Shown here: one piece after another, positions 46,901 to 49,900 of the stretch | Layout of the letters: each line of letters begins with the position of its first letter | Numbering within the stretch: the stretch's first letter is position 1 | NCBI GenBank assembly: GCA_965246885.1 | Contig: OZ251992.1 | Location: forward strand, 2,400,001-2,464,000 | Direction of reading: 5' to 3' | Length of the DNA stretch: 64,000 bases | Origin: Abditibacterium sp. | Lineage (GTDB): Bacteria; Armatimonadota; Abditibacteriia; Abditibacteriales; Abditibacteriaceae | Made by a program: the position numbers

Positions 46901-49900
46901 GCTAAGACTACCCAAAAACGAGCACGAGTGTTTCTAATACTTTACCCTCCCTTCCCCCGACCTATATGAAATTGCGCGCCCGCCAAGGAATGACACTCTG
47001 AAAAAAATGAGCAAACAATACCCGACCGGACAGACCTCTCGTGGTGTGGAAGCGACCTCTTCCGCCCTACCCGACGCTGTGGCGGCTTGGGTGAAGATGG
47101 CCCAGAAAACGCCGCTTCTCACCGCCGCCGAAGAAAAAGAATTGGGCCGCCGCATCGCTAAAGGAGACGAACCCGCCTACAAACGCATGGTCGAGGCCAA
47201 CCTGCGCCTCGTCATCACGATGGCGCTCAAGCAACTGCACCAAGGGCACAATCACTCGCTCACTCTGGCCGACCTCATCCAAGAAGGGAACTTTGGCCTG
47301 ATGCGCGCCGCCCGCAAGTTCGATCCCGCGCTGGGCTACCGCTTTTCGACGTACGCTTCGTTCTGGATTCGCCAAGCCATGAGCCGCGCCATCGCCGACC
47401 AAGCGAAGATGGTGCGCGTCCCCGCGCATATCGCGGAACTGACCAAGACCGCTTATCGTACCATCGCCACGCTTGTGCAATCGTTGGGGCGCCAACCGAC
47501 CGTCGAAGAACTCGCCGAGAAGCTGCAAGTCACCAAAGAAACCGCCGAACTGGTTCTCAAGAACATGGCGGAAACCTTCTCGCTCGACGACGAGATCGGC
47601 GACAGTGGCGACGGCGAGGATTTCGTGGATATGCTGCGCGACGTGGATGCCATTGTCCCCGAAGAAGCCGCCGAAACCGCCATCCTGCGCGAGGAAGTGC
47701 GCCGCGCCTTGGACGAACTGACCGAGCGGGAGCGCGAAGTCGTCAACATGCGCTACGGACTTTCTGGCGGACGCGCGCACACTCTGCAAGAACTGGGCGC
47801 CTACTTCAAAGTTTCGCGCGAGCGCGTGCGCCAAATCGAAGGGCAGGCGCTGCGCAAGCTGCGCAAGGGCGGCCTGAGCGAAGCGGTCAACTAAACAACT
47901 CCATAAACCACCCATCGGCCCGCGAACTCGATTCGCGGGCTTTTCGTTTGGAAAGAGCCATGCCTCAAGAGCCGGAAACTGATTTGCAGAAGCAGTGAGT
48001 TCTATGGGAATCCAACTCAAACCCTTAAACGAACAGGTCGTTGTGCTCACGGGCGCAACCAGCGGCATTGGACTGGCAACGGCGCACTCGCTCGCCAAAG
48101 CCGGAGCCAAGGTAGTGCTCGTGGCGCGCAACGCGCAGGCGCTACAAAAGGTCGCCGACGAGATTAGCGCCAATGGCGGACAAGTCGCCTACGTCGCCGC
48201 CGATGTCGCCGACAAAAGCGCGCTCGCGGGCGCGGCGCAAACGGCCTTAGATACTTTCGGGCGCATTGACACGTGGATTAACGACGCGGGTCTGGGCATG
48301 ATTGGGCGCTTGCAAGACGGCTCCGACGAAGACCACCGCCGCTTGTTCGAGACGAACTTCTGGGGTCTTGTTTACGGCTCTCTCATCGCCTTGCCACATT
48401 TAAAACACAACGGCGGCGCCCTCATCAACGTGGGCAGCGAAGTCTCCGAAGCCGTCATCCCCCTCCAAGGAATGTATGCGACCACCAAACACGCCGTCAA
48501 GGGCTTCACCGACGCCCTGCGCGTGGAGTTACAAGTCGAGGAAGCGCCCGTCTCCGTCACGCTGATTCAGCCCACTGCCGTTGACACGCCCTTCCCGCAG
48601 CACGCGCGCAACATCACCGACCAAGAGCCAAAGCTCCCCGACCCGATGATCGAGGCCCAGCAGGTCGCCGATGCCATCTTGCACGCTTGCGCCAACCCCG
48701 ACCGCGACGTGAAAGTGGGCGCCATGTCGGTGATGAACACCTTTATGCACAACTTCCTGCCCAAGGTGGGCGAGAAAATGGCGACTGCCCAACAAGACCG
48801 CCAGCACTACGACGAGCCGCCCCGCGACCCTCAAGGTTCCCTCTACTCTCCCGCCGCCGACGGCGACGGGCAGGTAAAGGGGTCGGGCGGTGTGCAAAAA
48901 TAAAGGCTCGTTGGGGCACAACCATTCGAGGCGGCGCCAAACGAAGAAACAGCAATGAAGAAGTGCCCGTTGTGTGGTTACGTGATGGAAGCCTTTGACC
49001 GCGAGTGTTTGCGCTGCAAAGGTAGGGGCGTCGCAGTTCCGGCACAGTCCACCCCTGCTCCGGGGGCGCCCACCCCCGCCCCACGCCACTCAACAGACTC
49101 ATTTCATCCGCCGCTCCCGCGCCACCACTTGGCCCCACTGGGGCGCCGCCTTTTTTTCTGGCCGCCCTCGAAAACACCTTTGGCAAGCCCAAACTGTCCC
49201 GCTTTTACGCCGATGCCGACGTGCTGCTGTTCATTTTCTCTGGGCCATATCACGCAGGAGTCAACTACCCCTTAGCAAGCTAAGGGGCTTGTCCCTAATC
49301 CATCAGGATTGAGACATTAGGGCCGTTGACACGGCCCCGCTACCCTCAGATTTACCGAGAGTAGCAAGGTATTTGAAACCTATATTTCTGCTGGCGTTTA
49401 GGTCAGCGTTCAATTCAAAGTGACATTCACGGCAATGGAAAACAGATTGAGACTTGCGATTACCCCGATGCTTGTAGCCACAGTGCGAGCAGGTTTGGCT
49501 AGTGTGGCGGGGGTCTACCCCGACCACGCGGCACGCTTTCTCCGCGCCCTTGTATTCCAGCATCGCACGCAAACGAGCAAAGCTCCATTGGTGCATCTGC
49601 CGTTTCAAGGAAGTGCCCTTGCGGGCCTTCGTCCGTTGTCGAATCTCCGTCAAGTTCTCAACCACTATCACACTGCCAAAACCCACACTTTGAACGATAC
49701 GACGCGACACCACATGGTCACAGTCAGAGCGAAAACGGGTCAGGCGACGGCGAAGCTGTTTCAAGTGACGCTTGGCGCTTTTTGTTCCTTTGCTCTGCAA
49801 GCTGCGCTTGAGCTTGAAGTATCGGCGTTCAATGTTCTTCCAACGTTTCTCGCCGAAGAACCGATTATTGGACGCGACGGCGGGCCGCGTGATACCAAAG

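Follow-up and report, generated by a model that had tools for sequence, protein, structure and literature searches.

The family Abditibacteriaceae has no canonical RpoD. Taken as a whole, the observations are best explained if a short sigma-70 factor without region 1.1, here called g2211, serves the family as its working principal sigma; sequence comparison inclines us, with modest confidence, to this reading. For canonical promoters a handover from RpoD to g2211 is probable, possibly in the form of a split of labour. The survey's finding had named g2211 as the housekeeping sigma. Its conservation and its intact -35-reading helix agree with that role, but they do not establish a complete handover, as g944, the RpoD-like sigma with region 1.1, is still under selection.

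The g2211 gene and its product

The window, a stretch of 64,000 nucleotides from the genome of Abditibacterium sp. (G000), carries g2211 at 47007..47894 on the plus strand. This open reading frame encodes 295 amino acids. Pfam profile search identified only regions 1.2, 2, 3 and 4, and region 1.1 (PF03979) was absent, as had been reported. A possible ribosome-binding site, AGGA, lies upstream of the ATG (46985..46988, plus strand), and AGGAG/GGAG-like sites precede the orthologues. Past the stop codon, a GC hairpin followed by TTTT (47915..47950, plus strand), found by eye, is a probable intrinsic terminator. In most genera the divergent neighbour of g2211 is valS.

All parts of the protein described here are encoded on the plus strand. 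In the alignment, region 1.2 begins with DAVAAW (47073..47090), where the RpoDs of relatives have DSVRMW or DAVRMY. Sequence comparison placed the region 2.2 motif DLIQEGN, which we take to be core-binding, at 47271..47291. Regions 2.3-2.4, YRFSTYASFWIRQAMSR (47337..47387), are invariant in 25/25 full orthologues; in E. coli numbering, W433 is replaced by F and T440 by S, with Q437 and R441 kept, and Q123 of g2211 aligns with Q196 of B. subtilis SigA. According to the alignment, region 3.0, PAHIAEL (47421..47441), keeps H455 and E458, and the helix-turn-helix of region 4.2, TLQELG...RERVRQIE (47781..47840), keeps R584, E585, R588 and Q589, the last presumably also a promoter-reading residue. 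The residues with which a primary sigma reads the -35, extended -10 and -12 positions are therefore retained except for W433F and T440S, which together with region 1.2 are the non-canonical features.

The best NCBIfam matches of g2211 are RpoD models, every one below its cut-off (TIGR02393, 249.3-249.8 bits against 354). It also falls below the cut-offs of the named group 2 models TIGR02394 RpoS (239 against 378.7 bits), NF005920 SigB (227 against 464) and TIGR02997 (252 against 384.5). Its architecture is that of a group 2 sigma, an RpoD paralogue with regions 1.2-4 and without 1.1. In codon bias g2211 ranks 639 among 2744 genes, g944 303 and rpoB 1295; this proxy, built on a weak reference of only 8 ribosomal-protein genes, is uninformative for expression.

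Conservation of g2211

The near-invariance of g2211 described earlier was seen again on a larger set: identity to the G000 protein is 96-99% in 12/12 congeners, and across 12 genomes from other genera it is 86-90%. Residues 61-154 contain no variable position among 25 orthologues, and regions 2-3.0 are invariant in 25 genomes. Between genera, core identity is 92-95%; the g944 type has 48-63% and a third paralogue 45-74%. Canonical RpoD shows 95-98% inside a family and 74-82% from one family to another. In 12 pairs dN/dS was 0.009-0.059 for g2211, 0.045-0.19 for dnaG and 0.036-0.18 for mfd. g2211 is conserved at the level of a primary sigma.

The gene was found in 26 of the 27 family genomes, one copy being a contig-end fragment. 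In the remaining genome, G014, the contig stops 243 bases upstream of valS, the usual place of g2211, and this absence was rejected as a sign of dispensability. All 13 genomes of the genus have just two RpoD-like sigmas.

Promoters of stable RNA genes

TTGAC-type -35 boxes stand upstream of the rRNA operon and of many tRNA genes, as previously noted. The 16S operon has TTGACA-18-TAAAAT, and in the window TTGACA-17-TATATT precedes a tRNA-Met gene (63412..63440, minus strand). TTG[AC]nn lies exactly 17 bases from nAnnnT in 19/37 first-tRNA regions of G000 and in 15/20 of its congener G010; spacings of 12-16 occurred in 0-2 of 20 regions. G010 retains these boxes although its g944 reads RDRINELE and has lost the -35 residues.

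According to PMC2613000, the -35 element is read by R584, E585 and R588, position -14 by H455 and E458, and -12 by Q437 and T440. All of these residues except T440 are retained in g2211; g944 of G000 retains only R584 and E585. Stable-RNA promoters require a sigma whose -35-reading helix is intact, and among the group 1/2-type sigmas of the genus g2211 alone has one. It is thus the most likely reader of the rRNA and tRNA promoters, and we consider it quite probable that g2211 serves the stable-RNA promoters.

Leaderless promoters and a possible split of labour

The second promoter type is a (C/T)A(A/C)ACT box with a peak 13 bases before ATG. Of 1541 genes that start with ATG after a gap of at least 40 bases, about 19% carry it, and there is no -35 signal. 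In the window, TACACT lies 8 bases before an ATG (34471..34487, minus strand) and CAAACT 7 bases before another (21330..21345, minus strand); dnaG also has CAAACT 7 bases upstream of its ATG. The survey had given CA(A/C)ACT as the commonest -10 box. The peak near starts is real, but its assignment to g2211 is not supported: the box has no -35 partner, and its C at -12 is confined to the genus in which g944 has Q437R and g2211 is unchanged.

If there are two promoter types, then we can ask: Do both sigmas share the housekeeping work? In such a scheme, which we hold possible but do not favour, the strong -35/-10 promoters, those of rRNA, tRNA and some ribosomal proteins, would fall to g2211 and the YA(A/C)ACT promoters (dnaG, many biosynthetic genes) to g944, both sigmas being essential. 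As its promoters contain neither element, g944 would have lost its contacts to the -35 and to the extended -10. In G000 a -35 box is coupled to YAnAAT (28/447 sites) but not to YAnACT (10/722 sites), which suggests two promoter classes. Among leaderless boxes, an excess of C at -12 (z>3) was detected in 9/13 genomes of the genus, where C equals or outnumbers T, and in 0/12 other family genomes. Residue 437 of g944 is R in all 13 genus genomes, and regions 2-3.0 of g2211 are identical throughout, so this pattern is easier to understand if g944 reads the leaderless class, and g944 may thus read part of the housekeeping promoters. According to PMC2613000 and bioRxiv 2020.09.07.285775, preference at -12 moves towards C with the substitutions Q437H, T440I and, in B. 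subtilis, Q196R. No leaderless excess was found in G163-G166, whose RpoD is near-canonical. Neither G+C content (G014 loci with 61% GC lack the excess, G003 with 57% has a strong one) nor stand-alone CarD accounts for C at -12: no stand-alone CarD was found in 31 genomes of the class, where PF02559 matches sit in Mfd-sized or contig-cut frames.

On the other side, G002, G004 and G008 have R437 in g944 yet no C excess, and G005 reaches just z=1.7. The association reflects a single evolutionary change and cannot be separated from the loss of the third paralogue, which happened in the same genus. C at -12 also occurs in 9/28 of the -35-coupled YAnAAT sites of G000, so the -35-reading sigma tolerates C. 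The T-type leaderless excess (z>2.5) appears in 19/20 family genomes tested, regardless of the g944 residue. In region 2.3 of the genus g944, F(S)(T)Y has become FGAY, a change that should alter reading of -7T, yet the ACT end stays constant. Finally, according to PMC12340547, a single RpoD in Deinococcus reads -35-less TACACT leaderless promoters.

These counts rely on spacing controls, which were N39-41 in 59 genomes and N15-17 in another 5, two sets that are not strictly comparable; the T counts cover the N39-41 genomes. A backwards-read control differed strongly from the spacing control and was therefore not adopted as a baseline. Motif fitting by EM, applied to samples of 380-440 kb from G004, G019 and G026, strayed to purine-rich signals; direct counts were used instead, for which G004 offers too few sites (6 nAnACT near starts).

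The sigma with region 1.1

The g944 gene (G000:C1:1068171-1069427) encodes a protein with a Pfam region 1.1 match of 38.9 bits (cut-off 22.5). An rpoZ-like gene, named from reading of its sequence and without a profile match, is divergent from g944, in line with the earlier placement beside rpoZ; the two are adjacent in four genera. In the alignment g2211 has YASFW and RERVRQIE and g944 has WWVRRAMN and RERVHDIE in G000, with RDRINELE in G006 and G010, just as first described; region 4.2 of g944 differs between congeners (RERVHDIE, RDRINELE, RDRLGELE). The claim that its promoter-reading residues have changed applies in extreme form to genera g1 and g3, but g2, g4, g5 and g6 retain WWIRQ and RERVRQLE. 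As had been claimed, g944 is less conserved than g2211, its identity being 60-86% among 12 congeners and 43-49% outside the genus. It was also said to be drifting, and this we cannot support: dN/dS of 0.06-0.24 is comparable to that of dnaG and mfd and indicates purifying selection, the reading frames are intact, and in Abditibacterium the protein retains region 1.1, YATWW and the core-binding motifs. g944 is present in 25/27 family genomes. In G016 its neighbour gene is missing too, so this loss is probably an assembly gap; the absences in G016 and G025 were rejected as a sign of dispensability.

These retained features, together with probable RpoD orthology, the rpoZ adjacency and the intact motifs of g2, g4, g5 and g6, would fit a g944 that is still principal and co-evolves with relaxed promoters, g2211 being a conserved group 2 stress or stationary-phase sigma of the RpoS/SigB kind. 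Failure against TIGR02393, common across the phylum, is also compatible with this. We regard it as improbable. Between genera g944 evolves faster than DnaG and Mfd, with 43-49% identity as compared with 57-63%, the opposite of what is seen elsewhere in the phylum; its region 4.2 varies among congeners while the tRNA -35 boxes stay at 17 bases; and other group 2-like paralogues across the phylum are only 45-74% conserved.

Descent of the two paralogues

Which paralogue descends from RpoD had been left open, and the question is now largely settled in favour of g944. The sister family of the same order, G163 (an assembly of 1060 contigs), has an RpoD that is linked to dnaG and contains region 1.1, and, separately, a g2211 orthologue (71% and 61% identity, on two contig ends); Pfam detects region 1.1 in the RpoDs of G163, G164 and G166. 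The AU test rejected a clade of g2211 with RpoD (p=0.013), and g2211, which has no dnaG linkage, clusters with short paralogues (SH-aLRT 92-94). A clade of g944 with the class RpoDs is unrejected (p=0.37), with support of just 81-85 and dnaG linkage lost. Possession of both genes by G163 and the AU result thus point to g944, and not g2211, as the probable RpoD descendant. The deep branches have low support (SH-aLRT 81-94) and the mixture-model trees are quick searches; we preferred them to FastTree (96/107 rows, near-duplicates dropped), which put g944 among other long branches, apart from RpoD.

This FastTree position, and the fact that beyond the order g2211 is most similar to canonical RpoDs (47-51%), would suit the idea that g2211 is RpoD itself, deprived of region 1.1 as in Bacteroidetes, with g944 recombinant or foreign. 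Both genes in G163, provided that its 1060-contig assembly is not chimeric, the AU rejection and the grouping with short paralogues contradict it, and we find it very improbable.

Absence of a canonical RpoD

None of the 27 family genomes reaches the TIGR02393 cut-off of 354 bits (best 249.8 in G000, 284.7 in the family) and 9/14 controls pass, in agreement with the earlier result. The RpoD of 378 bits, formerly attributed to a sister family, belongs to G164, of another order of the class; that of G163 scores 348.8, below the cut-off. As 65/151 phylum genomes miss this model, the miss alone is weak evidence. That a canonical rpoD exists and is missing from assemblies that are 63-97% complete is hardly credible, given 0/27 with assemblies in 1-3 contigs included (G019 has one contig at 93% completeness), dnaG in 27/27, and an unrelated gene after dnaG in G000.

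Proposed course of events

In our preferred reading, with g2211 as principal sigma, g2211 derives from a short paralogue without region 1.1 that the order's ancestor already carried next to RpoD; the tree shows a second fast change on the family stem, after which the protein was frozen. RpoD, once located behind dnaG, appears to have moved elsewhere and to have become the diverged g944. The present g2211 would bind core polymerase and, through its intact regions 4.2, 3.0 and 2.4, read the TTG(A/C)nn-17-TAnnnT promoters of rRNA and tRNA genes and of some protein genes, with Phe433 in place of the Trp wedge. It probably also fires most of the -35-less leaderless YA(A/C)ACT promoters, like RpoD of Deinococcus, and this is the weakest step. 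g944 would be a retained, still-selected RpoD descendant of altered specificity with a secondary or supporting regulon.

A broader proposal, which we make tentatively and think rather doubtful, is that the family has two essential principal sigmas, the paralogue-derived short one for all -35/-10 promoters and RpoD as a -35-blind leaderless reader with a one-residue shift at -12, and that in families f8 and f32 of the phylum a dnaG-linked RpoD was eroded in a similar way, independently, beside a conserved short paralogue; replacement would then be recurrent in Armatimonadota.

Comparison with known systems

Several elements of g2211 (DLIQEGN, FSTY, WIRQA, H455/E458, RERxRQIE) align residue for residue with SigA (B. 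subtilis SigA, PDB 7ckq_F; SigA chain 7l7b_F), and it resembles RpoD/SigA in regions 1.2-4, level of conservation and matching TTGACA-17-TAnAAT promoters. It differs in the missing region 1.1, the score of 250 against 354 bits, YASFW for YATWW, an altered region 1.2, a 4-residue insertion in region 2, the lack of dnaG linkage, and in not being the RpoD orthologue.

Sigma-ABfr of Bacteroidetes is also a housekeeping sigma without region 1.1, as PMC6847099 describes. In that phylum the motifs that read DNA have changed jointly with the promoter consensus, a -33/-7 pair TTTG/TANNTTTG, whereas here the canonical promoter persists, a paralogue is the predicted reader, and a diverged RpoD with region 1.1 is kept. 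Promoters here are TTG(A/C)nn-17-TAnnnT and YA(A/C)ACT, not the -33/-7 pair, and region 4.2 of g2211 is canonical. Mycobacterial SigB, a short group 2 sigma, transcribes housekeeping genes and complements SigA, according to PMC6529629, an example of a conserved group 2 sigma that works on housekeeping promoters alongside the primary sigma and has not displaced it. In the present family it is the sigma with region 1.1 that has diverged and the short one that is conserved. Both precedents differ in kind from the proposed swap in this family.

The leaderless boxes resemble the Deinococcus-Thermus TANNNT (commonest TACACT) in lying 6-7 bases before the start, ending in ACT and lacking a -35 (PMC12340547); those boxes, read by RpoD, have T at -12, unlike this genus, where C is as common or commoner.

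Significance

The primary sigma is regarded as among the least replaceable bacterial genes and is recognised by region 1.1 and RpoD orthology. In Abditibacteriaceae the canonical promoters appear to have passed to a paralogue that lacks region 1.1, with RpoD surviving in altered form. On this reading, annotation by likeness to RpoD would pick the wrong gene, which is a warning. For genetic work on this little-studied lineage, the reading predicts suitable promoters and the sigma to go with them. The sister family, with both genes, shows the starting state and provides a natural series for the replacement of an essential specificity factor. This raises the questions of whether housekeeping transcription needs region 1.1 and Trp433, and whether leaderless promoters may have a sigma of their own.

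RpoD-like sigma factors of the family

The survey's finding that the family lacks a canonical RpoD was confirmed: none of its 27 genomes reaches the TIGR02393 cut-off (best scores 242–285 bits), which 9 of 14 control genomes pass. This cut-off is a blunt test, missed by 65 of 151 phylum genomes, and G163, from the sister family of the same order, scores 348.8; it is the distance below the cut-off, not the miss as such, that sets the family apart. Equally low scores in all sampled members were found only in families f8 and f32. The dnaG gene is present in all 27 family genomes. 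RpoD lies after dnaG in G163, G164 (another order of the class), G166 and four other phylum genomes; in G000, the genome studied here, an unrelated gene follows dnaG, and among the loci examined no family sigma locus lies beside it.

The family has three RpoD-like paralogues: g2211 (YASFW), g944 with region 1.1, and a third type (YASYW, YATYW or YATFW). The first is a 295-aa ORF at window 47007–47894 (+), in which Pfam detected sigma-70 regions 1.2, 2, 3 and 4 and no region 1.1. RpoD models are its top NCBIfam matches, all under the cut-off (TIGR02393, 249.3 versus 354). G000 has 12 region-2 matches, and phmmer with g2211 gave four there: g2211, g944 and two remoter sigmas whose region 4.2 is not RpoD-like. 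The gene is complete in 25 family genomes; the G022 copy is a contig-end fragment, and in G014, where it is missing, the contig breaks off 243 bases upstream of valS, the gene that normally lies divergent to it. A homologue 86% identical to g2211 carries the NCBI label Abditibacteriaceae, in agreement with the family named in the survey. The g944 type is present in 25 of 27 genomes; G025, without it, is 63% complete, and in G016 (93% complete) no DNA match to g944 or its neighbour gene was found. The third type occurs in 12 of the 14 family genomes outside the G000 genus and in none of the 13 within, having been lost throughout that genus. It is fast-evolving in genus g4; in the family, as in G163, a MoaD/MoaE-like gene precedes it (L057–L060, L063, L066–L069, L120).

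Some g2211 orthologues, 89–90% identical (among P0013–P0017, P0019–P0021 and P0024), extend at the C terminus by a tail some 100 residues long, acidic and then lysine-rich, as read in six sequences. Locus L023 (G018:C163), a 3-kb contig with two identical inverted g2211 copies, is probably an assembly artefact. Locus L061 (G021:C323) holds a second, partial copy, with genus-g1 residues at its start and an end matching G021; this contig may be chimeric.

Evolutionary rates and promoter-reading residues

Identity of g2211 to the G000 protein is 96–99% in 12 congeners and 86–90% in 12 other family genomes. The corresponding values for congeners and other genera are 60–86% and 43–49% for g944, 68–91% and 57–63% for the N-terminal part of DnaG, and 73–91% and 52–65% for a stretch of Mfd. 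In close pairs the dN/dS ratio (Nei-Gojobori) is 0.009–0.059 for g2211 (12 pairs; some of the upper values take in upstream codons left untrimmed) and 0.06–0.24 for the g944 core (13 pairs), with 0.045–0.19 for dnaG and 0.036–0.18 for mfd. RpoD cores elsewhere are 95–98% identical inside families and 74–82% between them; set against these, the identity and dN/dS of g2211 show the constraint of a primary sigma. The g944 protein, earlier described as drifting, does evolve faster than g2211, but its core dN/dS shows selection, not decay: its rate is that of an ordinary enzyme or slightly faster.

The E. coli residue numbers used here are assigned by homology. Residues were placed by alignment to SigA structures, with roles from PMC2613000. 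The g2211 protein retains Q437, R441, H455, E458, R584, E585 and R588, and is altered by W433F and T440S. In g944 of the G000 genus FGAY or FGSY replaces FSTY, Q437R and T440N are present, H455 and E458 are gone, and region 4.2 ranges from RERVHDIE to RDRLGELE. In genus g3, four of five genomes have E at position 437 of g944 and the fifth, G014, has Q; genera g2, g4, g5 and g6 retain WWIRQ and RERVRQLE.

Stable-RNA promoters

The proposal that g2211 is the housekeeping sigma stood best at -35/-10 (class I) promoters, which gave its strongest argument. The rRNA operon promoter of G000 reads TTGACA-18-TAAAAT. At a spacing of exactly 17 bases, TTG[AC]nn precedes nAnnnT in 19 of the 37 regions upstream of first tRNAs in G000 and in 15 of 20 such regions in G010; spacings 12–16 gave counts of 0–3, and those at 18–20 are partly shifted readings of identical AT-rich boxes. 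The -10 boxes begin with T in nearly all cases. Upstream of protein genes the -35 is coupled to TAnAAT (19/234 versus 1.4 expected) and to CAnAAT (8/178 versus 1.0) and not to YAnACT (10/722). In the G000 genus an intact -35-reading helix is present in g2211 alone, which makes this sigma the prime candidate for reading the essential class I promoters. That g944 is still the sole principal sigma appears quite improbable.

Leaderless promoters and the -12 base

The second class is leaderless and lacks a -35. In G000 (C/T)A(A/C)ACT has its maximum 13 bases before ATG; an EM fit over 1541 ATG genes (gap of at least 40 bases) places the box at about 295, with C (0.47) or T (0.40) at -12 and no -35 seen. 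Gene starts came from a simple predictor, which missed the true g2211 start. The genes include dnaG and many putative biosynthetic ones, judged by N-termini. Genome-wide excess was taken as box-N6-8-ATG counts minus a spacing control. Of 20 family genomes, 19 have T in excess at -12 (z > 2.5); C is in excess (z > 3) in 9 of 13 genomes of the G000 genus and 0 of 12 other family genomes; sample C/T counts (6/9 in G010, 1/11 in G019, 1/8 in G026) are in line with this. Neither is in excess in genomes G163–G166, and families f9 (3/3) and f12 (2/3) show T excess alone.

The substitutions Q437H, T440I and, in B. subtilis, Q196R give a preference for C at -12 (PMC2613000 and bioRxiv 2020.09.07.285775), so the shift to C points to g944, and a genome shared between g2211 and g944 deserves consideration. 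However, R437 is present with no C excess in G002, G004 and G008, the shift is one evolutionary event, and C at -12 also occurs in 9 of 28 class I cases. In Deinococcus RpoD alone reads such leaderless promoters (PMC12340547), which counts against g944 as their reader. We regard sharing as unlikely.

In G000 and G010 about 10% of starts follow a Shine-Dalgarno-like word, versus 27–31% in G004, G019 and G026, so within the genus translation initiation appears to have changed in step with the -12 C promoters. In G037 (f12; L071, L076, L081), 98% complete, no sigma exceeds 299 bits; its best sigma has WWIRRAI (Q437R), and the genome shows a strong TA(A/C)ACT leaderless signal. CarD was not found as a stand-alone gene in 31 class genomes, where PF02559 matches lay inside Mfd-sized or contig-cut frames.

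Within the window, palindromic CACACT...AGTGTG, with a -10-like box on each strand, occurs at 55627–55644 and 21372–21386. The product of the gene at 51743–54328 (-) resembles a Ser/Thr kinase and has a zinc-ribbon insert and, towards its C terminus, membrane segments; the gene is apparently leaderless (TAAACT before GTG, 54281–54296). The 380-aa ORF at 49303–50445 (-) we take, from its C-terminal cysteine motifs, to be a TnpB (IS200/IS605)-like nuclease. Enriched upstream hexamers in G000 intergenic DNA are dominated by a palindromic repeated word set like TGACAGACGTCTGTCA, probably a small dispersed repeat.

Descent of the two sigmas and a parallel case

G163 has both a dnaG-linked RpoD (region 1.1 at 58.8 bits) and a separate g2211 orthologue, split over two contigs (71% over residues 15–189, 61% over 184–294); three database proteins, 64–66% identical to g2211, seemingly belong to the same sister group. 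No match to g2211 above 51% was found in 136 sampled phylum genomes outside the family. Mixture-model trees place g944 with class RpoDs (SH-aLRT 81–85, stem 0.94–0.98) and g2211 with short paralogues (92–94), the g2211 branch having an extra stem of 0.41 after the G163 split and then near stasis. The AU tests, with 32 rows picked out of 107 and a quick search, did not reject a g944+RpoD clade (p = 0.37). A g2211+RpoD clade was rejected (p = 0.013). By these phylogenies g2211 is placed outside the RpoD orthologous group.

Between genomes of f8 and f32 the dnaG-linked sigma is only 45–55% identical (L072, L073, L074, L080; motifs such as YAVWWIRQQ and VEGARRLE), and a short paralogue of another lineage 71–85% (L075, L077, L078, L079; CATLWIRQA, RQRVKQIAD). 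In tRNA regions of G130, TTG[AC]nn stands at 17 bases in 2 of 20, most have no -35 box, and CAnAAT (7) is about as frequent as TAnAAT (6). We read f8/f32 as a second, independent case in the phylum of a strongly diverged dnaG-linked RpoD with a conserved short paralogue.

Open-access searches for Abditibacterium and Abditibacteri- found no literature on sigma factors or RNA polymerase promoters, and the available part of the Fimbriimonas genome paper does no more than count three rpoD genes (PMC4072686). On a group 2 paralogue taking the place of a primary sigma, the search brought up a single Burkholderia paper. The proposed handover to g2211 seems undescribed in the open-access papers covered.

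Possible division of labour between the sigmas

The family has two sigmas of unlike origin, one frozen with canonical determinants and the other diverged but selected, and canonical stable-RNA promoters beside a large -35-less class. The g2211 holoenzyme would probably produce rRNA and tRNA; that it is in addition the main reader of the leaderless class is a reading we favour only slightly. The observation itself is real and family-wide. As judged from sequence, g2211 would work like a primary sigma without membership in the RpoD orthologous group.
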